Shown: positions 2,984 through 55,831 of the stretch, one piece after another
Numbering within the stretch: position 1 is the first letter of the stretch
Layout of the letters: each line of letters starts with the position of its first letter
Assembly (NCBI GenBank): GCA_043228905.1
Contig: JBHGNT010000059.1
Span: forward strand, 97,030-161,029
Direction: 5' to 3'
DNA length: 64,000 bases
From: Azolla caroliniana
Lineage: Eukaryota > Plantae > Polypodiophyta
Made by a program: the position numbers and the translations under genes
The notes under the pieces: generated by a model
Seen by the model: the letters and a program-made list of their open reading frames with translations, nothing else
Database searches by the model: none
What the model was told of the DNA's origin: nothing

Positions 2984-2987
2984 TCTT

Positions 2988-21524: not shown

Positions 21525-23546
21525 ATGGAGAATCAACAAGAGGCGATGAACATGATGATGATAATGTTTGAGCGGATGCAACAAGAACAACGTGCGATGT
21601 CGGAGATGAAGGCGGCAGTAGAGCGGCTTCTGCGACGAAACGGGGAATTCAACGGTAAGGGTGTGTCACGCTACCTACGTGAATATAAGGCGGAGATGAT
21701 GCAATATCGGATACCGGAAGGATTGCAAGTGATATCCTTTAGTCGGGTGGCCTCGGATGAACTACAAGAGAGAATCCACAAGATACAACAACAAAACTCG
21801 ACATGGGAGTCCTTTGAAGAAGCTTTACGGGAGGCATATGACTATGAGAGATGGACGGGACGAGATCGACGAGAATTCGACGAATGGGTGGCGTCGGAGA
21901 AGACTCACCGAAGTGCAACGCAAGCGTTCCTAGAGTTCGAGCATCGTTTTGCTCGACTCTCGGAGCGGAAACGACGATTGGTGGGAGAAGATAAAGTCTT
22001 AATGTTCGTAAGATCGATCGATCGGAAAGAAAGGATGGACATTGGGATCAAACTCGAAGATGATGACGGTGCGAACGGCCTTACCGAGGATTGGGCCAAA
22101 GTCGAAAGGGTATGCCGAAGACATGATGAAAGGAAGCTGAGAATCTCGTCAACAACGACATGGCCCATGAAGGATGGTCGATTGAGGAAAAACGATGAAG
22201 CCAATATGAAGGCCGAAATACAACATGATGGTACCACGGGAGAAAGAGTGGAACAAGACACCCACTCGTCTTGTGAAAGAACGATGGCGAAGGATAAGGC
22301 CGATAATTCAAGTGTAGAAGGAAATTTCGGGATACAAGTGCCCGAGACATCGGGTCAAAAAGGGGTAAGCATAATAGATGTTTGCATAATTGATGCAGAT
22401 AAAGAGTGTGAAGCGGATGTGATTAAGGAGGTAGCCACAAAAGACGAAATCGAATCGGAGGTGGCTATGGACGAATCAATGGCGGATTGCCATATCGAGA
22501 CTTCCCCACCACTGATTCCAGAGACTCCGGCGGTTGCGATCGAAAGGCAACGTGAGACCGAAGAGACGGAAGGTGGCGGAGAGAAAACGAATGTCGAAGC
22601 CGACGAATACGATGAAGAGATAGCCGAGAAGAATGCTAAGGGTGAAACTACGAAAGAAGGTAATACCGAGGATTCATGCCAACAATATCTAGAGACTTCG
22701 TCGGTTGTGTCCGAGAACCAACGTGAGACCGGAGAGACGGGAGATGACGGCGAGGAAGGTAAAGTCGGAAGTCGGTTCGGATGGAAAATGATCCATCCGA
22801 AATTCCAATCTAAAAGAAAGTGCGACAATGCGGAGGTCGGGTCTACGACGGGAGAAGCGCGTAATACAGAGCATGCTCTACGGCGAATAAAGAAACGCGT
22901 GTTATTGCGAATAAAGAAGCACGCGCTACGGCGAGAAAAGAAGCATGCATTACAACCACACGAGGACCGAACAACGAGCACATATCGGAGGACCTACGTG
23001 GCGAACAACGGAAAGAAGTGCCGAAAGTCGAACCGAACAAGGCAGGTGAAAACGAAGAAAAGAAAGCAAATCCGGACGAAAAGAAAAGAAAAGAAACCGA
23101 CCCGAAAGAGCACTGAATCGGTAAAAACCGATCAACCGAGTCCGGATCGACCGAATACAAATCGGAAAGGAAGCCGAACTAAACGAAAGACGATCCGACG
23201 AGACCGAATCGGAAGTAAGCTAATCCGACTAAACCGAAAATCCGAAAAGAAGTCGAGATTGATGAAGAAAAGAAAGAGGGCAAGAAAAGATACTACCGCG
23301 GATGACAAGGACCAAGCGGGCCATGCAAAAAGCGAACGAAGACTATGGTGGATCGGATGTCGACAATGGTTCGGGTGGAAAGAATGGATGTGCTCCAAAT
23401 GGAGAGACAAAGTCAACATAACAAGAGAAGTCGAGGGTACTACGAGCCGGCAACGAAACCAATCGGGTAGAGACCGGACGGAGGAGACTAACAAACACCA
23501 ACAACTTCGGCACATACCGGAGAATGTGCGGGTTTGGAGGGGGTGA
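21525..23546 (+). CDS. Gag-derived protein with acidic, basic and Trp-rich C-terminal extension (variant A)
   Basis: N-terminus aligns by eye to the gag at 3028 (GEFNGKGVSRYLREYKAEM vs GRFDGRDATKYLASYGAEM; GLTEDWAKVERVC vs GLTTDWAAVKKVC); no CCHC or protease. Confidence 0.8.
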   Translation: MENQQEAMNMMMIMFERMQQEQRAMSEMKAAVERLLRRNGEFNGKGVSRYLREYKAEMMQYRIPEGLQVISFSRVASDELQERIHKIQQQNSTWESFEEALREAYDYERWTGRDRREFDEWVASEKTHRSATQAFLEFEHRFARLSERKRRLVGEDKVLMFVRSIDRKERMDIGIKLEDDDGANGLTEDWAKVERVCRRHDERKLRISSTTTWPMKDGRLRKNDEANMKAEIQHDGTTGERVEQDTHSSCERTMAKDKADNSSVEGNFGIQVPETSGQKGVSIIDVCIIDADKECEADVIKEVATKDEIESEVAMDESMADCHIETSPPLIPETPAVAIERQRETEETEGGGEKTNVEADEYDEEIAEKNAKGETTKEGNTEDSCQQYLETSSVVSENQRETGETGDDGEEGKVGSRFGWKMIHPKFQSKRKCDNAEVGSTTGEARNTEHALRRIKKRVLLRIKKHALRREKKHALQPHEDRTTSTYRRTYVANNGKKCRKSNRTRQVKTKKRKQIRTKRKEKKPTRKSTESVKTDQPSPDRPNTNRKGSRTKRKTIRRDRIGSKLIRLNRKSEKKSRLMKKRKRARKDTTADDKDQAGHAKSERRLWWIGCRQWFGWKEWMCSKWRDKVNITREVEGTTSRQRNQSGRDRTEETNKHQQLRHIPENVRVWRG

Positions 23547-24765
23547 GTGTCGTAGTGTATTTTGTACACTACGTGAAAAACGTATATAGTATTAGATTCA
23601 ATAAAAAATGAAGAAATAGAAGAAAATAGCAAAATAAATGGAACATGCATAGGGCAAGATTCGAACCTTGCACCTCCATGTTAATAATGTAATGTCTTAC
23701 CATTACACTAGCATTTCATTAGTGTTAAAGTATAGATGTCCCACATAGAAAGGTAAATTCACGCTAGGATAAACATTAGAAAAACGCATAACAAAAGAAA
23801 AAGCTACACATACACATCTAGCGTGCATGATAAAAAACGCACAAGTTAGAAAAAGCATGATCACTTTAGATAAAGCATATAGTCTATCTATAGGAAAAGC
23901 ATGAGCACTATATTTAGCAAATAAAAGCAAGGATTAGAAAAGCATCACATGCACATTTAGTGTGCATGAACATATTAGAAAAAAAGCATGTAGCTATGCT
24001 TAGTCTCTCCCATCACTACATAAGGATGGGGAGCACAATGTAATAGGTGTGTGAAAAATATTTGGGAAATTGGATATATTTCCTAAAACACCAATTAATA
24101 TAATCGTGGGATTCACGAAGTTTTATATAATCTATCTCTTTCAATCTAAATTCATATTCTTACATAATTATTGATTAATGTAATACTTGTGGGATTCACA
24201 AGGTTTGATCTCTTTTCTATTTCTACTCTAAACTATTCTAAACTATATCAATTTATTACTATGATTAGTACAAACTAAAACAACTCTACTTGTGGGATTC
24301 ACAAGCTTCTAATAATCTATACATAATTAAAATCACCTCAAATTCTTCCTCTTCCTAGTCCAAAACCCCAGCGGTTCCCACCCAACTCACGCAACGATCC
24401 GGAGCCGAAAGGCACGAGAAGCACAATGTAATTGTGTGTGAAAAATATTTGGAAACTGGATATGTTTCTAAAAAACACCAATTAATAAACTATACTCGTG
24501 GGATTCACGAGGATTCTATATCATTCTCTTTCAACCGAAGTTTATATTCTTATATTCATATTGATTAATCTAATACAATACACTCGTGGGATTCACGAGT
24601 TTGCTATAACTCTTTCTTACAACATATTTATATTCTTATTAGCCTTAAAACTCTCCTCTTCCTAGTCCAAAACCCCAGCGGTTCCCACCCGACTCACGCA
24701 AACGATCCGGAGCCGAAAGGCACGACACAGTTGGTGAACCCGACGTGAAGACGGGTGGCAAGGAG

Positions 24766-26412
24766 ATGGAGAATCAACAAGAGGCGATGAACATGATGAT
24801 GATAATGTTTGAGCGGATGCAACAAGAACAACGTGCGATGTCGGAGATGAAGGCGGCAGTAGAGCGGCTTCTGCGACGAAACGGGGAATTCAACGGTAAG
24901 GGTGTGTCACGCTACCTACGTGAATATAAGGCGGAGATGATGCAATATCGGATACCGGAAGGATTGCAAGTGATATCCTTTAGTCGGGTGGCCTCGGACG
25001 AACTACAAGAGAGAATCCACAAGATACAACAACAAAACTCGACATGGGAGTCCTTTGAAGAAGCTTTACGGGAGGCATATGACTATGAGAGATGGACGGG
25101 ACGAGATCGACGAGAATTCGACGAATGGGTGGCGTCGGAGAAGACTCACCGAAGTGCAACGCAAGCGTTCCTAGAGTTCGAGCATCGTTTTGCTCGACTC
25201 TCGGAGCGGGAACGAAGATTGGTGGGAGAAGATAAAGTCTTAATGTTCGTAAGATCGATCGATCGGAAAGAAAGGATGGACATTGGGATCGAACTCGAAG
25301 ATGATGACGGTGCGAACGGCCTTACCGAGGATTGGGCTAAAGTCGAAAGGGTATGCCAAAGACATGATGAAAGGAAGCTGAGAATCTCGTCAACAACGAC
25401 ATGGCCCATGAAGGATGGTCGATTGAGGAAAAACGATGAAGCCAATATGAAGGCCGAAATACAACATGATGGTACCACGGGAGAAAGAGTGGAACAAGAC
25501 ACCCACTCGTCTTGTGAAAGAACGATGGCGAAGGATAAGGCCGATAATTCAAGTGTAGAAGGAAATTTCGGGATACAAGTGCCCGAGACATCGGGTCAAA
25601 AAGGGGTAAGCATAATAGATGTTTGCATAATTGATGCAGATAAAGAGTGTGAAGCGGATGTGATTAAGGAGGTAGCCACAAAAGACGAAATCGAATCGGA
25701 GGTGGCTATGGACGAATCAATGGCGGATTGCCATATCGAGACTTCCCCACCACTGATTCCAGAGACTCCAGCGGTTGCGTTCGAAAGGCAACGTGAGACC
25801 GAAGAGACGGAAGGTGGCGGAGAGAAAACAAAGGTCGAAGTCGATGCATACGACGGAGAGATAGCCGAGAATATGGCTATGGGTGAAACAATGGAGGATG
25901 ATAATACCGAGGATTCCTACCCACTAATTCTAGAGACTTCGGCGGTTGTATTCGAGAACCAACGTGAGACCGGAGAGACAGGAGGTGGCGGCAAGAAAGG
26001 TAAAGTCGGAAGCCGGTTCGGATGGAAGGTGATCCGGACAGGATTCCGATCCGAAAGAAAGCCAACCGAAACCGAAAGCGATAGATCGAAACCGGGCCGG
26101 AAGGAGACCGACTCAATCGAAACCGAACAACCGATTCCGATTCGGCCGAATACGAATCCGATCAGAAGCCGATCAAACCGAAAGTCGATCGGACGAGAGC
26201 GATCCGGAAAAAAGTCAAGGTTGATGAAGACAAGAAAGAGGCCAGTAAAAGACACTACCACGAATGACAAGGGCCAAGAATATGACGAGAGAGAACAAAG
26301 AATATGGTGGATCGGATGGCGACAATGGTTCGGGTGGAAAGAATGGGTCTACTCAAAATGGAGAGACAAAGTTGACATAGCGGGACAAACAGAGGATGAA
26401 GGAGGAGACTAA
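24766..26412 (+). CDS. Gag-derived protein (variant B, shorter C-terminus)
   Basis: First ~360 aa almost identical to variant A, diverged afterwards, but retains WWIGWRQWFGWKEW..SKWRDK. Confidence 0.8.
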   Translation: MENQQEAMNMMMIMFERMQQEQRAMSEMKAAVERLLRRNGEFNGKGVSRYLREYKAEMMQYRIPEGLQVISFSRVASDELQERIHKIQQQNSTWESFEEALREAYDYERWTGRDRREFDEWVASEKTHRSATQAFLEFEHRFARLSERERRLVGEDKVLMFVRSIDRKERMDIGIELEDDDGANGLTEDWAKVERVCQRHDERKLRISSTTTWPMKDGRLRKNDEANMKAEIQHDGTTGERVEQDTHSSCERTMAKDKADNSSVEGNFGIQVPETSGQKGVSIIDVCIIDADKECEADVIKEVATKDEIESEVAMDESMADCHIETSPPLIPETPAVAFERQRETEETEGGGEKTKVEVDAYDGEIAENMAMGETMEDDNTEDSYPLILETSAVVFENQRETGETGGGGKKGKVGSRFGWKVIRTGFRSERKPTETESDRSKPGRKETDSIETEQPIPIRPNTNPIRSRSNRKSIGRERSGKKSRLMKTRKRPVKDTTTNDKGQEYDEREQRIWWIGWRQWFGWKEWVYSKWRDKVDIAGQTEDEGGD

Positions 26413-31837: not shown

Positions 31838-33267
31838 TGCTTGTGTTCGGAACTACCCCGGTTCTCTCTCCGCCTATTTGAGCGTGTCATGGTTGATCCA
31901 CCCTTATATACACAAGGCCATGCATGTCTAGTACATGCATGTCCCTTCCCACGTCCATTCCTATAGACGTTAATGGCATGATCCATACTTGGGCCACGGA
32001 AGAGACCATTCACTTTTCACCACCCCCCTTTACGTGTCCAGGATCCTCCTGCTTCGACCTACCATATCACTAGCCCTATACTCACCTCCATCACACCAGG
32101 AGTGGGATTATGCACTTGGGCATTTCAAATCTACTAACCTATGGACGCTTCGTCCATATTGCAACGTAGACAGTATGTAACCTCATGATAGCCACCTACA
32201 CATGTGATGCCATTGAGGTTGTAGAGTGCGTATGGGCCTCGTAAAACGAGGATAAGGTGGTGAGAAAAGGTTTTTAGGGTGTTGGTTCTCTCCACGAAAA
32301 CGTGCTCGGTGGTTGTGGCCACGAGGGAGTTTAGAATCCATTGCGACCAACATACGGACGACGACACGCGTTTTCATTGTGATTACAAGATCCGTCGTCG
32401 TTGTGGACGCTGCAACCACCGGAGGAATATGAAGGTGGCACCATTCAAGGACAACATTTCTAGGTGAAACATGCGTGGGTTGGTTGGTTCACACGATGAT
32501 GAAAATGGTAGATAGACATGGGAATGTCATGTGGAATCATGTTTGTAGTAGGAGTTACGATCAGCCACTACTATTGCGCACATCATGGTACGGCGAGACA
32601 CGGCATTGTATGAGGGTGGCTTCAATACAACATTGTGATGGCATCGACGTTTGACGAGTTTCGCGTTGCTCGTGAGAGAGATAGCGATAGATGGATAGCG
32701 ATAGATATAGGTAGGGTGGGAATGGGTAGTGTGCGTGTGGGCACGTTACCTAATCATGTGTGCGTGGAGTTTCATTTTGCTTGTGCAATGAGCGAGCGAG
32801 GGCACGCGACTTGATCGTGCGTGCGTGCGTGCGTGCGTGTTGTGCGCGAGCGTGGGAGAAATATGATTGAGAGGGTTATGAGAACGTCAAGACACCACAC
32901 AGAGCACACCATTTGGGTGAAAGCATGCGAGTGGAAACAATTAGCTATGTCCTTGACATAGCTAATTAGCTATGCAAAAAGCTACCATTGATAAATAGTC
33001 ATTTTAGTAAAAAGCCATCATGAATAAATTAAGTATGCAAAAAACTACCATTGAAAATACTAGAGTGTTTTAATTACATATGTAAATGAGTGCCATAAAT
33101 GTGCAACATAAATTGATGTGTGCACCATAAATGTGTACCATAAATTATATATCGAATTCCTAGGGCCATTATGCATGATCCTTTGCCACATCACGTTGGC
33201 CATCTCTAGTTGAGTACTGTGGGTTAGTTGCTACCACTGTTGCTAAACCCTATCGAGTCCACCTGCC

Positions 33268-34010
33268 GCCACTCTACACTGAGGGGCTGCTACTGTGCGT
33301 TCCAAGCATCATCAAAGAGCTGCTCAATCTGACGGGGTTCTCTTCTCTGTGACACTCTACACTCAGGGGCCACTACTGTGCATTCCAAGCATCATCAAAG
33401 AGTTGTTCAATCTGACGGGGTTCTCTTCTCTGTGCCACTCTACACTCAGGGGCCATTACTGTGCGTTCCAAGCATCATCAAAGAGCTGTTCAATCTGAGG
33501 GGGTTCTCTTCTCTGTGCCACTCTACACTCAGGGGCCATTACTGTGCGTTCCAAGCATCATCAAAGAGCTGTTCAATCTGAGGGGGTTCTCTTCTCTATG
33601 CCACTCTACACTCAGGGGCCGCTGCTGTGCGTTCCAAGCATCATCAAAGAGCTGTTCAATCTGACGGGGTTCTCTTCTCTTTGCCACTCTACACTCAGGG
33701 GTTGCTACTGTGCGTTCCAAGCATAATCAAAGAGCTATTCAATCTGACGGGGTTCTCTTCTCTTTTCCACTCTCACTCAGGGGCCGCTACTGTGCGTTTC
33801 AAGCATCATTGGTAACTGTTCAATCTGACGGGGTTCTCTTCTCTTTTCCACTCTCACTCAGGGGCCGCTACTGTGCGTTTCAAGCATCATTGGTAACTGT
33901 TCAATCTGACGGGGTTCTCTTCTCTATGCCACTCTATTCTCAAGTGCCTTCTATGTGCGTTTCAAGCATCATCGGTAACTGTTCAATCTGACGGGGTTCT
34001 CTCCTCCATT
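33268..34010. repeat. 83/81-bp tandem minisatellite (~9 copies) upstream of the transposase
   Basis: CCACTCTACACTCAGGGGCC...CAAGCATCATCAAAGAGCTGTTCAATCTGACGGGGTTCTCTTCTCT recurs with 83-bp period (ORF echoes at 33295, 33378, 33461, 33544, 33627, 33710). Confidence 0.92.
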
Positions 34011-34337
34011 GCCATCATTCTATACTCAGTTGCCACTACTGTCCAGTCCCGGATTGCTTCCACATTTCGATTTGACGGAGTTCACTCATCCAACGGCAAC
34101 ATTCTACACTCAGTTGTTGCCATTGGTCGGTCTTGGATCGCCTCCTCAACTGTTGGATCCAACAGAGTGAAATCCTCTACTGTTCGGTCTTGGATTGCAA
34201 TAACTTTTCTGTCTATTGATTATCTTGTGTATTGTTGTGTCTAATCTTGTGTATTGTGTGGAATATTTTTGTGTATTGTTGTTGCCCATAGCCATCTTTA
34301 ATACTTGTTTTTTTTTCTGGAAATTTAGGGTTTTAAC

Positions 34338-37300
34338 ATGTCTAGCCAAATGGAAGGGGAAGAAGGGTGTTTAGAATTACCCCTCAATGATCATAAGGAT
34401 AGGGATGATGTTATCAGGACACAACAAGCCATACGAAACTATTGGGCAGAAAAAAAAAGGAAACATCGTCAATTGTTGAAGGATACGAAAGCCACACTCA
34501 GTAAAGGTAAGGATAGTTTAGCTGAGAATGTAAGTAATGCGACTACCATCATAGAGAGAAAGGTTGTAGACTATTTCAATGTTCAAACCAAGCACATCAG
34601 CAATGAAGAAAAGAAGGTAGTACTTTATGGAATATGTAATGATCCATCGATAAAGGACTTAGTTGATTGTGATGGTCTTAATGCAAACATATCATCTATT
34701 TTAGTAAATAATCTTCGTAATAGTTTCGTATCCATGAGCAGGTCAGAAGATGATCTTGTCTTAAAAAGGTCTAGTCTAATGATGTTACTTAATAGTGATG
34801 TTGACGATATAAACATCAGTGAGCTATCTAAGGTAATTGGTGTTAGTAGAAAAACAGTGTACAATACAATGAACCGTATAATTTCCTCGGGTGAAGGAAC
34901 TAGTCTACTAAAGCTAACTACAAGATGTAAGCCAATGACACCCATAACATTTGAAATCAAGGATGTAATCACAATGTTTTGGACTAATGAGAGTAGGGTT
35001 TCACCCAATAAAAAGGATTTATGCAGGAAACGTGTTGGAAGAAATCAATACGAGGAGCATCCCATTCATCTTCTTGATGTACCTCAGGTATTTACATTTA
35101 TCTCAACATTTGTTTTGACTCTACTCGGAAAGTTAATTAGCTCAGTTAGCAGAAAAGCTAATTAGCTTATCAGATACATTTACCTCAGTTAGCTACTAGG
35201 ATCGCTACTACATAGGTAACTAGCTACTCTCAATAGTTACTACCATGATAGCTAATTAGATATTCTCAATAGCTAATTTAGGTACTACCAGATAATTAGC
35301 TGTACTGCTAGCTAGTTAGCTATTTCGTTATTACCAGCTAATTAGCTACTAGGAAAGCTAATTAGCTACCATGATAGCTAATTAGCTACTATGATAGCTA
35401 CTACATAGGTAACTGGCTACTCTCAATAGCTACTACCATGATAGCTAATTAGTTAGGATAGCTAATTAGCCACCATTATGGCTAATTAGCTACTAGACCA
35501 GCTAATTAGCTACTATACCAGCTAATTAGCTACCATGATAGCTAATTAGTTACTAGGAAAGCTAATCAGCCACCATTATAGCTAATTAGCTACTAGACCA
35601 GCTAATTAGCTACCACGATAGCTAATTAGCTACTAGACTAGCTAATTAGCTACCATGATAGCTAATTAGTTACTAGGAAAGCTAATTAGCCACCATGATA
35701 GCTAATTAGCTAGTAGACAAGCTAATTAGCCACCATGATAGCTAATTAGCTACTAGGACAACTAATTAGCTACTAGGACAGCTAATTAGCTACCATGATA
35801 GCTAATTAGCTACTACGACAGCTAATTAGCTACCATGATAGCTAATTAGCTACTAGAATAGCTAATTAGCTACTAGAATAGCTAATTAGCTACCATGATA
35901 GCTAATTAGCTACTACGACAGCTAATTAGCTACCATGATAGCTAATTAGCTACTACGACAGCTAATTAGCTACCATGATAGCTAATTAGCTACTAGAATA
36001 GCTAATTAGCTACCATGATAGCTAATTAGCTACCATGATAGCTAATTAGCTACTACGACAGCTAATTAGCTACCATGATAGCTAATTAGCTACTAGGACA
36101 ACCAATTAGCTACTAGGACAGCTAATTAGCTACCACGACAGCTAATTAGCTACTACGACAGCTAATTAGCTACCATGATAGCTAATTAGCTACTAGAATA
36201 GCTAATTAGCTACCATGATAGCTAATTAGCTACTACGACAGCTAATTAACTACCATGATAGCTAATTAGCTACTAGGACAACTAATTAGCAACCATGATA
36301 GCTAATTAGCTACTAGAATAGCTAACTAGCTACTAGAATAGCTAACTAGCTACTAGAATAGCTAATTAGCTACTAGGATAGTTAGCTAGTTACGAGAATA
36401 ACTAATTCCCCTTTATTACGCAGGTCGATTTATTTATTAGGTTCAAACGAATGCATCCAACTATCAAAGTTCAACTACGAACATTCGAGTCTCTTAAGCC
36501 ACACTTTGTGAGACGCTTAAAGGATCGATACACATGTTGTTGCATTTACCATGTACAGATGGGTTTTCTGAAGGACTCTGTTAATCTACTACGTCACCAT
36601 AGCGCATCCCTAACTAATACAGTTTGCACATGTGGGTGCCAAATCTGTCGATCAAGCCCGCAAGAGGAGTGTAAATCATCTGAGCACGTTATCTCTTCCA
36701 TGAGTTATTTATTAGATTCAATATTGTGTCCGAGAGAATCTGACGCTATCTTCCATATTCATAAATGTGTCATGGGTTTATGTCAAGATTGTGGCCCTAC
36801 TAGATTTAGGTGGTGTCCAAATGAATTGAGTAGTGAAATATTGATCTCTGTGAAGTTATTTGAGTCAGTGAACACCAATTTCGAAGGAAAGGTGTGTAAA
36901 AGAAAGGATCTAGTTCGGAAGATGCTTAAACCAAGGGATTTGGTGTCTCTGTTTGTAGTATCTCTAGGAAAGTTCATTAAACACAACTTCATTTATTCAT
37001 GGCAGGCCCATCAGTTTAAGACTTGCATATCTGATTTCCCAAATGATGTAGTAGTCTCAGTAGTAGATTTCGCAGAGAATTATACTTTCAAGCAGCAGAA
37101 TGAAATTCAATCTATGCATTGGTGTTCAGTTCAGGTAACCATTTTTGTGCACATAACATATTTTCGAGTTTCAGGTGATGTTAAAAAAGTAATTCATTTC
37201 TTTATTTCCGATGATAAGAAGCATGATACCTTGTTCGTCCAACACTGTTTTAAGTTACATTGGCAGTGGTTATTAGCTCAACGTTTGGAGCTTACTCAAC

Positions 37301-38265
37301 ATTGGGTCTGGTCTGACGGAGCTGCGTCACAATTCAAGGCTCGACGTCCATTTTATTTTGTGGGGAGGTATCCTGCTATAACAGGTTTGGAGATGAGATG
37401 GAATTTTTTTGGGTCTGGCCATGGTAAAGGTGAACATGATGGTGCAGGGGCTGTTATAAAGCGGGCACTTACCCATGAACAACTAAAGACAGATGGTGTG
37501 CACATGAATTGTGCATCACATGTAGTTGAATTTTTAAGAACAAATATGTCGACGAGTGCCACAGGTGTTTATTCCTCGCAAGTTCGAGATATCAAACGTG
37601 AATTTTGGGAAGTGAAGATAGATGAAGTAAATAGGGAGAAGACCTGGGAGTGCCAAGGAATTCCCGAATTGCGATCTCTACATGCTGTTCGCGGTTATTC
37701 CAGGTTCGATGGTCATTGTATTGCGGTTAGAGAATTGACTTGTTTTTGCTTCCATTGTGTGCAGGGAAATTGGAGATATTGTCTAAACAAAGCATACATT
37801 CAGAATTGGGAGTATCACACTCTGAATGATAAGGAAGCAGTTGATGGAGAAACAGGGCAGAATGCTGACTTCACATATGAGGGACTTGGAGATACTTTGA
37901 GTGATGTCCTGAACGTTGGGGATAACTTCGCTGTAAATGCTGAAGAAGGCAATTCAGAGGGTGCTAATTTCTATATATTAAAGTGCACGGTTAGTAAACA
38001 GTGTGCAAGGCAGAATATTGTAGATGCATGGGGAAATTTTGTATCTGCCGGTACATTCTACATCGAAGGCATTTTTTATGCAAAACTAGATGACTACGAA
38101 TATGTGTACAGGCTGTTAGAAGACAAACCAGCGGCGTATATGTACTCTCATTTGGTCAGATGCATCAACGTCCCAATGTCAGAATACAATAGCTGCTCCG
38201 GTTTATACACTGTTGGTGCTAATGTGTATGAATGTATTTACAATAGTATGCCATGGAATTTGTAG
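34338..38265 (+). CDS. Sola2-like DDD transposase, two exons (34338-35087, 36424-38265), ~863 aa
   Basis: Motifs VDFAENY..QNEIQSMHW, WSDGAASQFK, FFGSGHGKGEHDGAG, Cys-rich regions, N-terminal HTH-like ISELSKVIGVSRKTVYN; phase-0 intron CAG|GTATTT...TTACGCAG|GTC joins the ORFs in frame. Confidence 0.8.
35140..36400. repeat. ~20-bp satellite built on palindrome AGCTAATTAGCT filling the transposase intron
   Basis: Dozens of units GCTAATTAGC-TACCATGATA / -TACTAGAATA / -TACTACGACA. Confidence 0.95.
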
Positions 38266-38740
38266 CTACAAGTAGCACTTACCATGTTCTCTTGTAAAAC
38301 AAACATGTATTTCGCGAAAACAGATCAATAAATTCGTTTGGAATCAATTTCTTGTATACAGTCTGCTTTCTGTGCTTCTTTCTCAATAAAATCATGTCTT
38401 TTTTGTTAAGTTTTAAGTTATAAGTTATAGCGAAATAGTCATCAGTAGCTAATTAGCTGTACAAATGAAGCTAATTAGCTGTACAAATGTATTTACAATA
38501 GTATGCCATGGAATTTGTAGCTACAAGTAGCACTTACCATGTTCTCTTGTAAAACAAACATGTATTTCGCGAAAACAGATCAATAAATTCGTTTGGAATC
38601 AATTTCTTGTATACAGTCTGCTTTCTGTGCTTCTTTCTCAATAAAATCATGTCTTTTTTGTTAAGTTTTAAGTTATAAGTTATAGCGAAATAGTCATCAG
38701 TAGCTAATTAGCTGTACAAATGCAGCTAATTAGCTGTACA
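38231..38740. repeat. ~255-bp tandem duplication of the transposase 3' end/UTR
   Basis: AATGTATTTACAATAGTATGCCATGG...TAGCTAATTAGCTGTACAAATG occurs at ~38231 and ~38486. Confidence 0.9.
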
Positions 38741-38889
38741 AATGCAGCTAATTAGCTGTCAATAGCTAAATAGTCATCAATAGAATGAAATCAACAATCT
38801 GCAACATATTCCTCAAATTACACAGTAGATAAGTACAGTGGGAACAAGTAATTAAATTCTTCATTGAATAATGTCATCTCTTTACATAT

Positions 38890-40024
38890 TTATAAATTAC
38901 CATTGGAAATGTCTACAAATCTCCTATAAACAGCTAAGCTCTTGCTAGTCAGTGGAACGAGTCTACATATATTATCCGCATATTGAGCTCGGTATGGAGT
39001 CCACAACCATGCACCTAGTTGGCAGCTCACTGTTTGCACCAGGTACTGTTCAGGCATTTCCTCGGGTAGAATGAGACAGCATCTCCGAATATTGAAGTAG
39101 TGTCGGAAATGTTCTGTATCCAAAATCAATGTATTGTCAGCATTATATTCAGGCCAAGTAGCCCAAAAATCAGAAAGCCTCTTGAATCTTGCAGCTTCCA
39201 TCTGCTCACAATTTTCTCGTGCCCATTGACCTTTAAAACGACTTTGCCATTTTGGGAAGAATCTTGCCAAACACTTCCACACATCTGATTTTGGTTTTTC
39301 ACTCCAAATAAACAAATCGAAGTACTCCGCAGCCCACTCTAGAAACTGATTTGCGTCCCTCCTTGGCTGCATATATCTCACACTCATCAAGACTTTATCC
39401 AGCTCCAAGATCAAGGCTCTTCGCTCGACTTCTAGTGGTTTAGGTTTCCATTCCTGAAACTGAGCCGCTGTTACACCATTTTCTGGTAGGATACGATCAA
39501 TCTCAATCAGCTCAGGTTCGGCTGACACAACTGGTGTCCTTTTTCCTCTTTAAACCCCTAGTCGACTGTGTTGGGCCTAGCTTCACATTCTGGTGCTCTT
39601 GTTTTGTCGACTTAGTTATCAATCCTTGGATTATCTGAGTGCATGTAGCTACTGTTCTGCTCGATATCAATCCACTGGTATCACATGCTGCATCTACCTG
39701 CAACACCAAGTCATCCGTGCTACATGCTGCATCTACCTGCAACACCAAGTCATCCGTGCTACATGCTGCATCTACCTGCAACACCAAGTCATCCGTGCTA
39801 CATGCTTGATCAACTTGTGTGACCAGATCACTTGTGTCAGTTGCTACATCTACTTTCAAGATGGGGCCCTTTAAACATGCCGCAACATCAACAGTATCCA
39901 CACTGCCATTGGCCTTACGAGCAATAGAATCAAACCCTTTAGACTCTGCAACATCAGAAAACACCAACATATTCACACTCACAAAGTAACTACTAGTCTC
40001 ACAAAACAATATCCTGAACATCAA
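38890..40024 (-). CDS. Transposon cargo: 13-aa-repeat region + FCP1/NIF-like (HAD) phosphatase-like domain; split by an apparent 1-bp frameshift at 39540-39544
   Basis: ALILELDKVL...RRDANQFLEWAAEYFDLFIWS...NTLILDT..RHYFN resembles the FCP1-homology fold with degenerate DxDxT; upstream VLQVDAACSTDDL repeats; start uncertain. Confidence 0.6.
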
Positions 40025-40194
40025 AGAGTTTCAGTCATAGAACAACACTCTTCAAATTATCTTGGAAAAACATCATAGAGTTCCATTACATAATGTGGAT
40101 CAAGCAACAACCAATCTGAGGTTTTACTTGTCCAACAGGATAGTAAAACTTCATAAAACCCTAGCAAAATCCCTAAGCTAACAATCATATCCAA

Positions 40195-43100
40195 CTAAAC
40201 AGTATTTCGCTCCACTACGTCTGGGCCCCTTGACCGAGTAACTGGTCTTGTTCCCGATCGCGGCCCCTTCTTCAGCCTTTTTCTGGTTGGTTCCCCATTT
40301 AGCCTTGCTTCTAGGACCCAATGCGCAAGTGTGTCCTCCTCCGACAACCTTCCCATCGCCTCAGCAGCTAATTGCACATCAGCTGTTTCTTGAACTAGCT
40401 TTTCAAGTACAGAGGGATCTGTTTGGACATTTTCAGTAGTTGGGCTCGGTGGGGTGGAATCAAGGTCTTGAGACTCGAAGAAATGTTGCATCAAGTGTTC
40501 ATAAACACTGTTGTTGTGAACCTCAATTTTACATGTTGTTTCCACTATTTCATGGCATTTCACATCGTTGCCTAATTCAGTACACTGTTCCAAAAGAATA
40601 GGGTGCAGCTGATCTGAAGGAGATGTGATAACAGGACTCTTACTTTCAGCCACATTGGCAGTAGTATCCTCATCTGTCGCAGCATCATCAGCACCAGACA
40701 CATCATGTGCCGTCCTTAATCCACAAGATTCTACAATAACATGACAGTTATTTAGGATAGCTAATTAACTACTTTACTAAACTATGGTAGAAGCTAGGAT
40801 AGCTAATTAGCTAGTATGATAGCTAATTAGGTACTTTACTCAACTATGGTAGTAGTTAGGATAGCTAATTAGGTACTTTACTCAACTATGGTAGTAGTTA
40901 GGATAGCTTATTAGCTACTAGGACAGCTAATTAGCTGCCAGTAGCTAATTAGCTACTAGGATAGCTAATTAGCTGCCAGTAGCTAATTAGCTACTAGGAT
41001 AGCTTATTAGCTACTTTCCACAACTATGGCAGTAGCTACTAGGATAGCTAATTCGCTAGTAGGATAGCTAATTAGTTGCCAGCAGCTAATTAGCTACTAG
41101 GATAGCTAATTAGCTACTAGGATAGCTAATTAGTTGCCAGTAGCTAATTAGCTAGTAGGATAGCTAATTAGGTACTTTACTCAACTATGGTAGTAGCTAA
41201 TTAGCTAGTAGGATAGCTAATTAGCTACTTTACTCAACTATGGTAGTAGCTAATTAGCTAGTAGGATAGCTAATTAGCTACTAGGATAGCTAATTAGCTG
41301 CTAGTAGCTAATTAGCTACTAGGATAGCTTATTAGCTACTTTACACAACTATGGCAGTAGCTAATTAGTTACTAGGATAGCTAATTAGTTGCCAGTGGCT
41401 AATTAGCTAGTAGGATACCTAATTAGCTTTTTTACACAACTATAGTACTAGCTAATTAGCTAGTACCATAGCTAATTACCTACTAGGATAGCTAATTAGC
41501 TAGTAGGATAGCTTATTAGCTACTTTACACAACTATAGTAGTAGCTAGGATAGCTAATTAGCTACTATGGTAGCTAATTAGCTACTTTACTCAACTATGG
41601 TAGTAGCTAGGATAGCTAATTAGCTACTTTACTAACTATGGTAGTAGCTAGGATAGCTAATTAGCTACTTTATTAACTATGGTGGTAGCTAGGATACCTA
41701 ATTAGCTACAATGAAAGCTAATTAGCTACTTTCTCAACTATGTAGTAGCTAGGATAGCTTATTAGCTACTAGGACAGCTAATTAGCTGCCAGTAGCTAAT
41801 TAGCTACTAGGATAGCTTATTAGCTACTTTACACAACTATGTCAGTAGCTAATTAGCTACTATGATAGCTAATTAGCTAGTAGGATAGCTAATTAGCTAG
41901 TAGGATAGCTAATTAGCTAGTAGGATAGATAATTAGTTGCCAGTAGCTAATTAGCTAGTAGGATAGCTAATTAGCTTTTTTACACAACTATGGTACTAGC
42001 TAATTAGCTAGTACCATAGCTAACTAGCTACTAGGATAGCTTATTAGCTACTTTACACAACTATGTCAGTAGCTAATTAGCTACTATGATAGCTAATTAG
42101 CTAGTAGGATAGCTAATTAGTTGCCAGTAGCTAATTAGCTAGTAGGATAGCTAATTAGCTTTTTTACACAACTATGGTACTAGCTAATTAGCTAGTACCA
42201 TAGCTAACTAGCTACTAGGATAGCTTATTAGCTACTTTACACAACTATGTCAATAGCTAATTAGCTACTATGATAGCTAATTAGCTAGTAGGATAGCTAA
42301 TTAGTTGCCAGTAGCTAATTAGCTAGTAGGATAGCTAATTAGCTTTTTTACACAACTATGGTACTAGCTAATTAGCTAGTACCATAGCTAACTAGCTACT
42401 AGGATAGCTTATTAGCTACTTTACACAACTATGGCAGTAGCTAATTAGTTACTAGGATAGCTAATTAGTTGCCAGTGGCTAATTAGCTAGTAGGATAGCT
42501 ATTTAGCTTTTTTACACAACTATGGTACTAGCTAATTAGCTAGTACCATAGCTAATTAGCTACTAGGATAGCTAATTAGCTAGTAGCTCATTAGCTGCCA
42601 GTAGCTAATTAGCTAGTAGGATAGCTAATTAGAAAAGACTAAGCTTATTAGCTACAGTATGGTATACCTGTTTGTTTTCTCCACTCATTTGGTAGAGTTG
42701 TACTGCAATCTCCCAAACAGAATGCAGCAATTCGACAGGCATGTTGAAAACAAAGCAGATGGTATGTGTGGTTGCATGGTTGTAGGTGAACCAACAAAGA
42801 CGCAGTTTTGTCCTCCACACCTAACCCGCAAGCGATGCAACGTGCTTGAACTGTCAATAAATCATTTTCTGGTTCTACTTCATTTGGTAAGGGAGCAAGA
42901 ATGTTCAGGTCCAAATCCTGTCTGGTCCTTACCATTCCCTCCACAAAATGTAGCTTCTTCTTAAGGCAGCTAACTAACTGTTCTTGATGAATGTATTGTT
43001 CCTTCAACGCAACAGAGAAATTTACCGATTAATTATTCTTGTTGTTGAAAGATACACCAACTTTGCTCAGGAATCGTTAACTTACTTGAAGCTTATCCAA

Positions 43101-43989
43101 ATTGTAATCTGCAACAGTATTTACACCTAGAAGGTTCAGGTTCATTGAAAGAACCTGGATCTCTATTTGCAGTTCTATTTTACGCTGGGGATCCAGTGGC
43201 CCCTCTAATTCAAGCTCCTGTTGCGCAACCTATTCCAGATAATGCTTGATTAGCACATTTTACCTGTTATTTATAACACAATCACATACCAGCAAAACAA
43301 TAGTTACCTGAATCTTATTTCTAATTGTTGTAACAACAGAAGTAACTTCGCTCTCCATTGCAGAAGCCATTGTGGCTTTCTCTAAATCAGTCTTAAAAAA
43401 TGCCAATGTCTCACAGGCTTCATGGACATTTTTTAGCATATAGCTAACCAATGTCTCACCTGTATCATCGACATTGGCTTTCCTTGGGTGTCGGTGTGGT
43501 GTATGCCCCCGGTCTTGCTGGGAGTCGGCAGTTGCATCAACAGCTGCCATGCTCCAAAATCTGTCTATTTTTTGTGCCAAGGTCCCCATCTTTCGGCATC
43601 TTTTTACCGATGCCTCACCATAGACTGCCCAAGCTACCCTATACATTTCAGGGTCTCTAGATTCCTTCGCTCTTTTGCAGTACTCATATGCAAATGCTCT
43701 AGCAAATGAAACTGACAACTCATTGTTGACTAGGATCTCCTGATGAACTTTCTGGTGCAGCCTCATGCAGTCATCGTACAAGTCGGCTCGTACATGCTTC
43801 AGCTTGACCTTGCCTTTGACTCTAGGCACTGTATATACTGTCATCCAGTCTATATCACTGATCAATTTATCACTTAGGACAGCAGGGTCAACACCCTCGA
43901 GTGACAGACCATAGGTGTTGTGGAAGTCCTCCTTTGTCTCGCAAAATTTTGCGAAGTTTAGCACTCTCGTATACGGAGGAACGAGCCAT
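40195..43989 (-). CDS. Transposon cargo: multi-exon RING-H2-like finger protein (exons 43308-43989, 43086-43217, 42668-43001, 40195-40730; 5' end uncertain), >=560 aa
   Basis: GT-AG introns of 90, 84 and 1937 bp keep one frame open; RING pattern CIAC..PCNHTYHLLC..CLGDC. Confidence 0.7.
40750..42650. repeat. AGCTAATTAGCT satellite filling the 1.9-kb intron of the RING gene
   Basis: Dense GCTAATTAGC units with TACTAGGATA / TTTACACAACTATGG spacers, including higher-order repeats. Confidence 0.95.
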
Positions 43990-44039
43990 CTGAAATATCA
44001 TTTCAGAAATCAGAAATAGTGCAAAATCAGAATATGTGA

Positions 44040-44450
44040 GAATCAAAAACCCCAATCAACAACAACAAAAATGGTGCAAAATCTTTAACTTAACCTAATC
44101 AAAATCTGTAATCAGAAGTTTGAAATCAGAAACCCTAATCAAAATCTGTAATCAGAAGTTTGTAACTAGAAACCTTATTCAGAAATTCTAATCAGAAATT
44201 TATAATCAAAAACCCTAATCAGAAATTTCAATCAGAAACCCTAATAAAAAATTTCAATCACAAACCCTAATCAGAAATCCTAAGCAGAAATTTATAAACA
44301 AAAACCCTATTCAGAAATTCTAATTTGTAATCAAAATTTGTAACCAGAAACCCTATTCAGAAATTCTAATCAGAAATTTATAATCAAAAACCCTAATCAG
44401 AAATTTCAATCACAAACCCTAATCAGAAATTTCAATCAAAAACCCTATTC
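44040..44450. repeat. AAACCCTAATCAGAAATT degenerate repeat (telo-box-like)
   Basis: Multiple AAACCCTA(A/T)TCAGAAATT units, probably inside a 5' intron of the RING gene. Confidence 0.75.
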
Positions 44451-45055
44451 ACTAAAGACAGGATTAAACACAAAAAAAGTAATATAAACACACCTGTTGC
44501 TACTCCCCGATTTGCGAGACATCCTTGTATGGGACTCCAAGGACTTCGCCCTATTCGATTTTGGGGAAATATGAATCGGCACCAAAGTTCACACAGTAGT
44601 CAAAAAGAAAAAACAAATGTTTGGGGTTTCTGTAACTGAAACATACCTGGACGATGATCGAGCGGGTTCTGTGTTGTAGCTCTCAATCTGCAATGTCGAT
44701 TTTTTGCTGTTGCGGGAGCTACGTCTGCGTTCGTGCTCTGAGTACTCCATCTGCGTTCAAAATCAGACTTAGGCTAAACAGGAAATTGATGACATTGAAG
44801 TCGACCTTAGATGATGGTGATATTCCCCAAGTTCCACTACGTCTGAAACAGAAGTTCAAATATTTGAGTTTTTTCATAAATTAGTTTTTCAAATATTTGA
44901 TTTTCCCACAAGAAAGACTAGCTAAACAAATAGCTAATTAGCTATGGCCATTTTAGTAGCTAATTAGCTATAATAGTGTTTCCACTCGCATGCTTTTACC
45001 CATTTACATTTACGATGTTCAGAAAGTGTATAGTTGAAAAAGTTATGTACGTTCT

Positions 45056-50610: not shown

Positions 50611-51571
50611 TGTTACGGGCATGACCATATAATATCTCGTGGTAAGAATTTACCGGAGTATTCTATACACGTGGATAAGTGTGAGGGTTAAACGAGAGTG
50701 TAAAGAAGGGAGGATTACTTTTAATCGTCGGGATTGAGACAACCCATTAGGTCAAGTGTGAACTTGCCTGGGGGCCTTGGGTATCGCTATAAATAAGAGG
50801 CCTAGCTACCCTCATTTGATCATCTTTTGACTACATCGAGACTCTGCTCGTGTGGTGGGTCAACTCTTGTAGCGAGCGCGCCAGCACCAGGTACGACTCG
50901 ACGCCACGGCGGTGGTATGGGACGCCGATCGAGGCTCGAGTCCGTCTCGATCCCTTCGCTCGGGGGTGGTCGGGTGGATCGGCACCCTTCTTTCTCTTTC
51001 TCCTTTCTATCTTTCATTTCTTTATCCTTATCTTAATCTTACTTTAGTACCTAGATCTATAATATTTGGTATCAGATTTTTGTACTAATGTTTCTTTGTT
51101 TTTCATTTGTCTTTTGATTGATGCTGATCGATCGTTGTGCGGTTGGCCTTGATCCAGACAACGTTCAACAAAGAACTTCGGTAACTCTTTCCATAATTTT
51201 TCTTTCTATTCTCTCTTCTCCCATCTAATCATGTGTTTAGTTTATATGTAATTTTTTTTCATTAAGTCAATGATGTTGTAGTGGTCTTTAATTGATTATC
51301 TAAAACGTTTACATATGTGCACGAGGTCAATACCTCGTTTGACATATTAATAATATGTGATGAGTGTCGTATGCGTACGAGGTTAATACCTCAATTACGT
51401 ATTACGTTCACGAACATATGTTACGTTTGCGTATGACTTTAATACCTTGATTTGTTGTAAACGATATGCGTTTGGTCTCGTATGCGTAAGAGGTCAATAC
51501 CTCCATTGCGTATTACGATGATCTCTTATTTGTAGATGTTTCGTGTGCGTATGCCATCGTAATTACGAGAC
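50611..51571 (+). mobile_element. Truncated chromovirus-type Gypsy: 5' LTR (50611-51064) + Met PBS + 5' UTR fragment
   Basis: TGTTACGGGC...TAATA then TGGTATCAGA (tRNA-iMet PBS, 51067-51076); matches the reverse complement of 61525-62251. Confidence 0.85.
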
Positions 51572-52566
51572 TAGACGTTAATGGCATGATCCATACTTGG
51601 GCCACGGAAGAGACCATTCACTTTTCACCACCCCCCTTTACGTGTCCAGGATCCTCCTGCTTCGACCTACCATATCACTAGCCCTATACTCACCTCCATC
51701 ACAGCAGGAGTGGGATTATGCACTTGGGCATTTCAAATCTACTAACCAATGGACGCTTCGTCCATATTGCAACGTAGACAGTATGTAACCTCATGATAGC
51801 CACCTACACATGTGATGCCATTGAGGTTGTAGAGTGCGTATGGGCCTCGTAAAACGAGGGTAAGGTGGTGAGAAAAGGTTTTTAGGGTGTTGGTTCTCTC
51901 CACGAGAACGTTATCGGTGGTTGTGGCCACGAGGGAGTTTAGAATCCATTGCGACCAACATACGGACGACGACACGCGTTTTCATTGTGATTACAAGATC
52001 CGTCGTCGTTGTGGACGCTGCAACCACCGGAGGAATATGAAGGTGGCACCATTCAAGGACAACATTTCTAGGTGAAACATGCGTGGGCTGGTTGGTTCAC
52101 ACGATGATGAAAATGGTAGATAGACATGGGAATGTCATGTGGAATCATGTGTGTAGTAGGAGTTACGATCAGCCACTACTATTGCGCACATCATGGTACG
52201 GAGAGACACGGCATTGTATGAGGGTGGCTTCAATACAACATTGTGATGGCATCGACGTTTGACGAGTTTCGCGTTGCTCGTGAGAGAGATAGCGATAGAT
52301 GGATAGAGATAGATATAGGTAGGGTGGGAGTGGGTAGTGTGCGTGTGGGCACGTTACCTAATCATGTGTGCGTGGAGTTTCATTTTGCTTGTGCAATGAG
52401 CGAGCGAGGGCACGCGACCTGATCGTGCGTGCGTGCGTGCGTGTTGTGCGCGAGCGTGGGAGAAATATGATTGAGAGGGTTATGAGAACGTCAAGACACC
52501 ACAGAGCACACCATTTACATTTACAATGTTCAGAAAGTGTATAGTTGAAAAAGTTATGTACGTTCT

Positions 52567-53643
52567 TTAAAAGTGGCGAATACAAGCGCGTGGGCGAAGA
52601 TCACATTGTTGGAGAAGGCGAGAGGTTGCCACGCTTAGAAGTTGTTCCTCCTCACCGGCCTTGAAAAGACGATGTTGTTCCTCATCTTGTGGTCCGGTCA
52701 TGCGATAACGGCGCTCGTCCTCCTCGCGCTCGCTACTGTCTCTCTCTCGCTCGGCATCCTCTTCCCATTGACGACGTTCCCTTGACACTTGGCTATGGCG
52801 GTGACCATCATTGCGTGCCTCTTCTCCGCTAATGTATAAGGCCTCGCGGAGGCGATTGCAACGCTCTTCTACGGCAATTTGTTCCACGTCCCTGCAACAT
52901 CTTTCGGTGGGCCTTGCATATCGGCTGATTTCATCCCAAGAGGTGCGACAGCGTCATCCACGTTCTTCCTTCTCATTACGTTCTTGTAGGTGGCGGACCT
53001 GCCTATCGACGAAGTTTTGGCACTCGTGCCTCAACTCTCGGTCTCGTGGCTCATCGTGATCACGACCGCGACGATCCCGTTCCTCTTCGGACCCTCTCTT
53101 GTTGTCTCTGCGACGTCCTTCATCGAGGGATCCTTCACGACGTCGGTCGCGTCTCTCCTGCTCAACATCCTCCTCCCTACGTCGATCGCGCCTCTCGTCA
53201 CGTGACTCATCACGATCGCGACCGCGACGATCCTGTTCCTCTTCCGACTCTCTCTTGTTGTCTCCGTAGCGCCCCTCCTCGATGGACCCCTCGCGACGTC
53301 CCCCGCGCCTCTCCTCATCGAAATCCTCCTCCCTGCGTCGATCGCGCCTCTCCTCACGTGGCTCATCGCGATCGTGACTGCGACGATCCCGGTCCTCATC
53401 CCACTCTCTCTTGTTGTCTCTGTAGCGCCTCTCATCGATGGATCCCTCACGACGTCCGCTCCGCCTCTCCTCCTCGACATCCTCCTCCTTACGTCGATCG
53501 CATCTCTCCTCGTCGATGTCTCCCTCTCTTCATCGATCGCGCCTCTCCTCTTCGCGATCCCGTCCTACAGATCTAGCATTGGCCGCGCCGCAGGCGGCTA
53601 GCATGATAACCGCCATGAGGAATATAATAGGGAGCTTCGCCAT
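52567..53643 (-). pseudogene. 2S albumin-like copy 12 with premature stops
   Basis: CGA>TGA at 53530-53532 and 52954-52956; one Cys of the CC motif also lost. Confidence 0.88.
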
Positions 53644-54017
53644 TGCTTGTGTTCGGAACTACTCCGGTTCTCTCTCCGCCTATTTGAGTGTGTCATGGGT
53701 GATCCACCCTTATATACACAAGGCCATGCATGTCTAGTACATGCATGTCCCTTCCCACGTCCATTCCTATAGACGTTAATGGCATGATCCATACTTGGGC
53801 CACGGAAGAGACCATTCACTTTTCACCACCGCCCTTTTGCGTGTCCAGGATCCTCCTGCTTTGACCTACCATATCACTAGCCCTATACTCACCTCCATCA
53901 CACCAGTAGTGGGATTATGCACTTGGGCATTTCAAATCTACTAACCTATGGACGCTTCGTCCATATTGCAACGTAGACAGTATGTAACCTCATGATGGCC
54001 ACCTACACATGTGATGC

Positions 54018-55831
54018 CAATGGATCTCCCGTACAATTTTTATGTGATTAGGGAAGCTCACACAATTTTGTGAATGATCGTTTGGTTCAGATATGGGGAA
54101 TCCAACCCACCGTAAGTGATCACACCTACACGGTGCACTTGGTTGATGGAAGAGTACAATACGTCAACGGGGCGATTCATTCATTAGGAATTTCTATTGA
54201 TACTTATATAGAGGAAGTAGACTTCCATGTAATGAATCTTCCATGAACGATTATACGCATTTTATTCAATGTGTAAAAAAACAATCCCTCTCGATTGTTT
54301 CTTTGTGTCCATCAATATCCGAGTTGTCTTGTTCTACGTTCTTTTATTGTGTACTTGATCCAGACATTCACGTTTACGATATCGATAATGTCCCGATTCA
54401 ATTAACATATTTTGAACAACAACAACTTGATGAAATCTTAAATGATTTTCATGATGTTTTTCCAAGTGAACTACCTGATGGGTTACCTCCTAAACGTAAT
54501 ATAGACCATCGTATAGATATTGTACCTGGTGTTGCACCAATAAGTATACCTCCGTATCGCTTAAGTCGATCCGAAGAAGATGAGGTATCTAAGCAACTCA
54601 AGGACTATTTACGAATGGGTTATATACGTTATAGTAAATCTCCATGGGGTGCACCCGTTCTCTTGGTTAAAAAGAAAGAGGGCACATGGCGTATGTGTAT
54701 TAATTATCGACGCTTGAATAAAGTGACGATCAAGAATTCGTATCCATTGCCCCGGGCTGATGATCTAATTGACCGTCTCCAGGGAGCTCGGTATTTTACG
54801 AAACTTGATCTCCGTACTGGCTACCATCAAATACGAATAAGTGAGGACGATGTTCCTAAAATGGCATTTCGTACGCGCTATGGCCATTACGAATTTTTGG
54901 TTATGCCTTTTGGTTTGACCAATGCTCCGGCTACTTCTCAACAAGAAATGAATGACATTTTCCAAGAACAACTTGGAAAATTTGTCGTTATTTTCTTGGA
55001 TGATATTTTAGTTTATAGCCGTACATTACAAGAACATGCTAGACATGTCCGCTTTGTTTTACAAACATTGCGTGACAAACAGTTTTATGCGAAGATCTCG
55101 AAATGTGAGTTCTTCAAGAAATCAATTACTTATCTAGGACATCTCATAACCGAACGAGGACTTGAAATTGATCCTTCTCGCATTGAGAAAATCAAGCATT
55201 GGCCCACTCTTCGGAATATTCGAGAAGTTCGATCATTCCTTGGTTTTGTGGGGTTTTTGCGAAAGTCTCTTCGTAATTACTGCCAATTGACGACGCCGTT
55301 TACTGATCTTTTAAAAGGTCAAACGCGTAAGTCTACAAAACCTATTGTGTGGAATGCTACACTAGACCTTGCCTTTAAGGAATTCAAGGACCTGGTTTGC
55401 AAGGCTCCTTCACTTCTTTTGAGGTTGAAACCGATGCAAGCGATTATGCTATAGGTGCTGTCTTATATCAAGATGGTAAACCAATAGCATTCGAGAGTAA
55501 GAAACTTGATTCTGCTCAATGTCGGTATACCGTTCAAGAAAAGGAATTATTCGCAGTTATACATGCGCTCAAAACATGGTGCCATTATCTTTATGGAAAT
55601 CACTTTGTGGTAACTACGGACCACGAGTCCTTGAAATATTTTCGTGACCAACAAGACCTGAAAGGTCGTAAGGCACGATGGGCTGATCTCATCCAGGACT
55701 TTGATTTCTCCATACGATATCGTAAAGGTTCCATGAACGCTGTCGCTGATGCACTAAGTCGCATCCGTGAAGTTAACATGTTTAGCTTCACTGCAATATC
55801 ATCAGATCTTTATGATCACCTTCGAGGAAAG
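54018..55831 (+). mobile_element. Inverted pol fragment (PR-RT-RH, frameshifted) of the chromovirus-type element
   Basis: ORFs 54243-55454 ([16 protein letters not shown]) and 55397-55873 ([12 protein letters not shown]); reverse-complement copy of ~57435-59343. Confidence 0.9.

Follow-up and report, generated by a model that had tools for sequence, protein, structure and literature searches.

A Sola2-type transposon of Azolla caroliniana with a conserved accessory gene opposite to the transposase

Introduction

What is the role, if any, of coding sequences carried by a cut-and-paste transposon on the strand opposite to its transposase? The question is raised by a stretch of 64,000 nucleotides from Azolla caroliniana (GenBank assembly GCA_043228905.1, contig JBHGNT010000059.1, positions 97,030 to 161,029 of the forward strand), called the window hereafter, in which a Sola2-type element spans positions 32915-45001. 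A preliminary description, made from the letters alone, had assigned to this element two convergent cargo genes, encoding a RING finger and an FCP1-like pseudo-phosphatase. Splice phases, related loci and fern gene models suggest that the cargo is probably a single accessory gene, selected in many families of elements, whose product may bind palindrome arrays residing in the introns.

A recently inserted Sola2-type element

The element is a recently inserted cut-and-paste transposon. Terminal inverted repeats (TIRs) of 25 bp, beginning with GGG, are found at 32915..32939 (plus strand) and 44977..45001 (minus strand), and are complementary at 24 of 25 positions. They are flanked by two copies of the target-site duplication ATTT, at 32911..32914 and 45002..45005, the latter 50 bp past the point at which a storage-protein-like gene stops. 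The element splits a unit of a tandem array with a 2.2-kb period; its flanks are 98-99.7% identical to the intact siblings, and in 11 sibling units the site is empty, ATTT being present once. The array thus predates the insertion, and there is no doubt about the boundaries, which are those of the preliminary description. Sola2 TIRs end in 5'-GRG, a rule which the termini of the element fit.

The transposase is encoded on the plus strand by two exons, 34338..35087 (250 amino acids, with a helix-turn-helix-like stretch at residues 147-185) and 36424..38265 (613 amino acids, including the motifs DFAENY, SDGAASQFK and GHGKGEHDG), separated by a predicted GT..AG intron (35088..36423). The joined frame is free of stops and measures 863 amino acids, in agreement with the intact spliced protein first proposed. 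In Pfam scans the helix-turn-helix-like match of exon 1 (E=5.6e-5) was below the cut-off, and exon 2 matched no family. The frame is 96% identical in locus L001, and the ratio of nonsynonymous to synonymous substitution rates (dN/dS) between the two is 0.19 for exon 2.

All the core blocks of Sola2 transposases (D-F-x-ENY, Q.EIQS.HW, SDD..HD, SDG...QFK, HGK...DG.G..VKR) were recognized by eye in the protein, upon comparison with the alignment in Additional file 10 of PMC3627910. Sola2 elements generate 4-bp AT-rich duplications, ATTT among them (PMC3627910), and the duplication found here is of this type. A homologue search retrieved 127 proteins; named animal rows were found down to E 6e-18, and named plant rows came from a moss, a liverwort, ferns and conifers. 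In a quick tree of 68 rows, from which 9 intended rows were omitted for short coverage and which held no Repbase-labelled Sola1, Sola2 or Sola3 rows, the window protein falls in a clade of 51 rows including every named plant row (SH-aLRT 98), beside animal-type homologues. Motifs, duplication and ends support the assignment of the element to the Sola2 type; a Sola2-type transposase of a land-plant lineage is supported, as originally proposed.

The accessory gene and its predicted protein

Five exons, here called accessory exons 1 to 5, join in frame on the minus strand. Exon 1 starts from an ATG (44647..44750; a spliced contig extends to 44884), and is followed by exon 2 (44494..44550). Exon 3 (43308..43989) encodes a conserved domain of unclassified type (~43551-43955) and the beginning of a coiled coil, exon 4 (43086..43229) its continuation, exon 5 (42668..43001) its end and a RING-H2-like finger (42705-42839). 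A predicted fifth intron (40731..42667) leads to two candidate last exons. Exon A (40195..40730) encodes an acidic tract, in which 28 of 140 residues are acidic, a basic tip and its own stop. Exon B (38890..39945) encodes a linker, a basic stretch and a domain of the FCP1/SCP fold, and would be tied to exon 5 on account of splice phase and fern gene models.

Introns 1 to 3 are spliced in contigs of a related organism at the predicted CT..AC ends. The corresponding joints (44549-44646, 43989-44494 and 43227-43306), the last of which backs the acceptor of exon 4, were found in RNA-type contigs and were absent from the comparison DNA run; the two runs are presumed to be RNA, and come from one study. 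In organism E (runs X19, X20) the spliced contig of the accessory gene departs within exon 4 into unrelated sequence, and denotes a truncated or interrupted copy.

The N-terminal domain, about 135 amino acids of exon 3, is the most conserved part of the cargo, with 133 homologues at E<=0.001; nine of the ten chosen for look-up are Adiantum nelumboides models. Its predicted structure is confident (pLDDT 94.5). Conserved positions include W51, K63, KV-Q at 83-86, F98 and AWA at 122-124, and basic residues are kept at 59-70, 83 and 143. The model gave no match in the PDB by Foldseek at E<=0.001, a best Z of 2.3 by VIA-align, and no match in a library of viral structures; a profile search of PDB sequences gave none at E<=10. 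These negatives do not make the fold a new one. In an Atlas search Transposase_28 clusters were hit at 0.87, under the 0.9 mark, and a second homologue gave no usable match. For the region following the domain, a profile search gave only coiled-coil matches.

Both domains named in the preliminary description are encoded within the TIRs on the opposite strand, yet the main conserved domain is the one just described. The FCP1-like domain matches Pfam NIF above the cut-off (E=1.8e-8), while the RING-like motif, with its eight ligands C-C-C-H-H-C-C-C present and the last pair widened, is below it. By profile search the FCP1-like domain leads to UBLCP1, and its model matches Tim50, UBLCP1, SCP and CTDNEP1 (E 6e-7 to 1e-5). 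Since Tim50 and UBLCP1, which are not members acting on RNA polymerase II's C-terminal domain (CTD), rank first, specificity for this CTD is not implied. Motif I reads ELDKV (39391-39405) in the window and in sister families, and DLNG in the more distant loci L005 and L007 and gene models P0241 and P0314. Both deviate from DxDx(T/V), and neither features both catalytic aspartates; the domain is therefore likely a catalytically dead pseudo-phosphatase, as had been suspected. A dedicated search found no host source for it.

Conservation in related elements

The transposase alignment retrieved 80 loci, of which 25 extend past the match for 3 kb or more, and 11 for 10 kb. In 14 of the 25, and in 9 of the 11, the accessory domain, the RING exon, or both, are encoded downstream on the strand opposite to the transposase. 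Loci L034 and L035 represent one family, as do L062, L063 and L068, and the second-round profiles were seeded from six of the loci so counted. When profiles were aligned pairwise, frames in L011, L017 and L079 corresponded to the domain across 101-113 columns (E between 4e-5 and 1e-3). Strand and order of the accessory gene are kept even where the transposases share no more than 31-48% identity. In contigs belonging to one cargo cluster and one transposase cluster the sizes 17,573, 12,681 and 9,606 are shared, an indirect sign of linkage of the two genes in a sister family.

The constancy of the cargo has its exceptions. No accessory match was found in 11 of the 25 loci, including L076 and L077, which extend for the full 10 kb; for L022 and L064 the cargo is located farther out in the family, and L039, L044 and L054 belong to another clade. 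The FCP1 exon is not universal either. Frames were identified in 2 of the 80 loci (L005 and L007), and L003 has none between cargo and transposase; the profile used featured the window row out of frame, and L005 and L007 are supported independently. That the cargo recurs in many families and is no one-off capture is supported; that the FCP1 exon is always present is not.

Selection on the cargo, proposed as a check by the preliminary description, is indicated by dN/dS values below 1. Between L016 and L017 they are 0.27 for the domain, 0.36 for the coiled coil, 0.64 for the linker and 0.11 for the transposase, and between the window and an X20 contig 0.33 (25/33 differences); counts are small. 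Together with the distribution of homologues, these values denote a cargo which is selected, old, and evolves faster than the transposase. Sequence comparison therefore supports the view that the accessory gene is a fixed, selected part of many families.

The first 13 bases of the TIR recur in L002, L007 and L033, in each adjoining an AT-rich tetramer, and in L033 the RING exon resides inside a TIR end of the same type. Automatic pairing of TIRs and target-site duplications in 35 loci returned low-complexity pairs only. Next to the left TIR, the window (32945-32961) and L002 (71-87) have a small subterminal palindrome, ATGTC-N3-GACAT, which is degenerate in L007 (~55-70); it is a candidate conserved transposase site. 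L071 differs from the other loci in that a frame ending in a RING (3658-4917) follows the transposase on its own strand. In L077 (12693-13028) and L078 a DUF7869 match is found beside a TIR-like end starting with GGG.

Palindrome arrays and a possible function

The element holds 89 copies of the palindrome AGCTAATTAGCT. No copy was found in the coding exons, which make up 46% of the element, nor elsewhere in the window. Copies reside in the transposase intron, filled by an array with a 20-bp period, in accessory intron 5, also filled by arrays, in the intergenic stretch, and inside both TIRs, including copies inward of the right one. The two introns account for 84 of the 89, and the others are mostly intergenic, kilobases away from the termini. 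Five copies accompany a 255-bp duplication between the converging 3' ends (38231..38760), and a tandem array of nine 83-bp copies is located upstream of the transposase (33268..34006). Other families repeat other words, for example CCATTAATGG in L002, TTAGTACTAA in L057 and TTCGGCCGAA in L050. The palindrome is thus a short family-specific motif amplified in non-coding parts, as are the targets of VANC proteins, which are tandemly repeated in introns and in intergenic and terminal non-coding stretches (PMC5735166). The arrays must be read by something sequence-specific.

The accessory protein is tentatively taken to bind the arrays and to keep the element open to transcription in the face of host silencing, a reading to which we give somewhat less than an even chance. 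Like those of other Sola2 elements, the transposase would cut at the TIRs and generate the 4-bp duplication. One gene would direct the synthesis of a short product made of the folded domain, the coiled coil, the RING-H2-like finger, the acidic tail and the basic tip, and, in fern-like families, also of a long product ending in the catalytically dead FCP1-fold domain. The N-terminal domain is predicted to read the palindrome and the coiled coil to multimerise the protein along the arrays; acidic tail, RING and dead phosphatase would recruit or decoy host chromatin and transcription factors.

Several observations weigh against a function of this kind. The N-terminal domain, predicted to bind DNA, matched no Pfam family in 65 homologues nor in 63 alignment members, and its net charge is only +2 (median of 61 rows). 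The finger scores E=0.04 against Pfam zf-RING_2, and in the window has none of the E2-contact Trp, Pro and linchpin Arg that active RING ligases usually feature. Other observations suit a different reader, the transposase itself, which carries its own helix-turn-helix-like stretch, below the cut-off as it is. The motif is found immediately inside both TIRs, and transposases alone are reported to activate cognate copies (10.64898/2026.08.24.746577). If the transposase binds the arrays, the accessory protein might be a partner or adaptor in transposition, involved for instance in synapsis or in the control of transposase turnover, suggested by the preliminary description, through the RING, whose eight ligands are retained across families. 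We regard such a division of labor as rather doubtful. The location of nearly all the copies in introns and between genes, far from the ends, does not favor it, nor does the constancy of the first 13 TIR bases across families with differing motifs; a role as partner is further at odds with some related transposase loci, whose 10 kb of flank gave no accessory match.

A probable single gene and its two last exons

The function proposed above for the accessory protein is outlined for the products of a single gene. The preliminary description had two cargo genes; taken as independent genes on the minus strand, they would be a RING gene ending at 40195 and an FCP1-like gene starting near 39972. The exon 5 donor is in phase 1, and exons A and B both open at phase-1 acceptors. 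In L005, whose transposase is 48% identical, an acidic exon with its own stop is likewise followed by an FCP1 exon, both at phase-1 acceptors, and the FCP1 frame of L007 begins in the same way; L003 has the acidic exon, and no FCP1 frame ahead of the transposase end. In the fern models P0241 and P0314 the N-terminal domain, the RING and the NIF match are found in a single chain. Because of splice phases, relatives and fern models, the cargo is probably one gene, with five exons and two phase-compatible alternative last exons. The predicted products would measure about 618 amino acids (short form, exon A) and about 790 amino acids (long form, exon B). Read-through of the whole of exon A into exon B was considered for this copy and rejected, no phase-1 donor being present in the last 310 bases.

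Some data are at variance with a single gene. No RNA joint linking exon 5 with one or the other last exon was seen; runs X19 and X21 gave no cover across exon 5 or the acceptors of exons A and B, and the sole long spliced contig departs from the element at 43186. The fern models were annotated automatically, and chimeras occur among the homologues, several of them being of this kind. Two genes would account for the stop of exon A, present in the window, L003 and L005, and for an in-frame ATG 27 bases ahead of the exon B acceptor, at which, or earlier, gene callers start (P0325-P0327, P0121). The frames of exons A and B, however, are separated by merely ~220-250 bases, and three families share a phase-1 AG acceptor at the opening of the FCP1 frame, but not the position of the ATG. 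Adding the phase of the exon 5 donor and the fern models which join the RING and FCP1 parts, two genes are improbable.

The FCP1 part is impaired in the window. A T run at 39540..39544 is one base longer than in the family, and shifts the frame ahead of the FCP1 domain, unless it is an assembly error. The domain reported by the preliminary description is present, but the extra base cuts it off in this copy, which would make only the short product intact. A contig from a DNA run (X6; depth 4,761) differs from the window solely in having one base fewer in the T run, and the sister clusters P0325, P0326, P0327 and P0121 (4 of 4) read through the site. The family frame is therefore open, and the window copy either mutant or mis-assembled. 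The listed indels are confined to introns, untranslated region and gap, with the exceptions of this base and of a 3-base loss in exon A. In the same run near-identical contigs have depths of 4,700-8,600, beside divergent ones at 24-75, a contrast which suggests many recent copies, depth not being a copy number.

That the cargo is a host-gene fragment carried passively (Pack-type capture), as the frameshift, the decayed, stop-bearing cargo of several loci and the loss of the FCP1 exon in L003 might indicate, is highly improbable and largely refuted by its retention in strand and order beside divergent transposases, its low dN/dS, its correct splicing and the open FCP1 frame of the four sister clusters.

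Surroundings of the element

The 2.2-kb tandem array extends across the window (1-64000) in ~13 units, 98-100% identical. Each unit hosts a gene with Arg/Glu/Asp repeats, whose C-terminus is weakly similar to the seed-storage/LTP family (E=8.5e-4). Frames of a Ty3/gypsy-type retrotransposon (reverse transcriptase, RNase H, integrase) reside within the array at 2791-8630. In another break of the array (21426-26409) two plus-strand frames of 706 and 587 amino acids share a common start; neither has a Pfam match. A gypsy element with a chromodomain spans 51253-61804. Its reverse transcriptase region is duplicated in inverted orientation (arms 54244-55420 and 57849-59025, 97%), and an additional inverted pair measures 287 bp.

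Discussion

The window element shares with the Sola2 elements aligned in PMC3627910 the motifs of the whole transposase core, short TIRs and a 4-bp AT-rich duplication. The alignment features animal and amoebozoan rows only, whereas the window element belongs to a land-plant clade, and adds a conserved spliced accessory gene and internal palindrome arrays. The accessible part of a review of plant transposable elements gives in its table only Sola1 for plants (PMC9033089), and nothing on plant Sola2 is found in the accessible parts of PMC4455052, PMC5751038 and 10.1101/2021.09.26.461848.

Cargo is already known in Sola elements. Sola2-Fanzor1 chimeras of Dictyostelium fasciculatum and Polysphondylium pallidum combine, as the element described here, a Sola2 transposase with a cargo gene in the 3' half, and have a 4-bp AT-rich duplication (PMC3627910). 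The notion of Sola2 as a transposase-only group, stated in the preliminary description, is contradicted by these chimeras. Their cargo is a TnpB-like Fanzor, and no TnpB/OrfB family was found in Pfam scans of the window cargo frames or of their homologues. Sola1-1_Ec32 of Ectocarpus is similarly a large Sola with an accessory gene opposite to the transposase, but is a Sola1 carrying ParB and a DNA methyltransferase (PMC12477816). No prior description of the present cargo was found in a literature search that did not extend to Repbase Reports, papers behind subscription or the supplements of preprints, any of which could hold one.

Resemblances extend to other superfamilies. In the VANDAL elements of Arabidopsis, too, the accessory gene evolves faster than the transposase, and its product, VANC, combines a globular domain with a coiled coil (PMC5735166, PMC13547354); the domain is MAIN-like, and multimerises via coiled coils (PMC13547354). 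VANDALs, in contrast, are MuDR elements, and VANC has DUF1985/DUF287 and resembles MAIN. Neither DUF matched the 65 cargo homologues or, at E<=10 and among the 25 families displayed, the 63 alignment members, and no VANC/MAIN-like fold gave a significant match in the structure libraries, in which the inclusion of the VANC structure 9LNK was not checked. By domain and superfamily the accessory system is thus no VANC, and yet may work like one. Retand long terminal repeat retrotransposons have an antisense accessory reading frame (TRP28) with a predicted DNA-binding domain, and family-specific tandem arrays, but are retroelements of flowering plants (PMC11963269). MAIL3 and MAIN/MAIL1-PP7L associate, in cis or in trans, a transposon-related motif-associated domain with a phosphatase-family domain; they are host genes pairing PMD with PPP, not the present domain with an FCP1/HAD fold, and provide an analogy only (PMC7156037; 10.1101/2024.09.27.615353).

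At its broadest, the hypothesis is that Sola2 elements of seed-free plants possess an anti-silencing system of their own, which is sequence-specific, independent of both VANC and TnpA, and conserved from mosses to ferns. A DNA-binding domain of new fold would co-evolve with the palindrome of each family, and a long splice form would add a RING and a dead CTD-phosphatase as a decoy for the host transcription or ubiquitin machinery. In this full form the hypothesis is rather unlikely.

The element belongs to an active-looking, two-gene Sola2 lineage in land plants, in which an accessory protein is kept beside transposases down to 31% identity. Its transposase being intact and its insertion fresh, it would suit a standard plant transposition assay. 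If the accessory protein reads the family palindrome, it would represent an independent solution to the problem that VANC solves, and the families would provide many natural protein-motif pairs for the study of specificity, in large fern genomes in which transposon control has been little studied.

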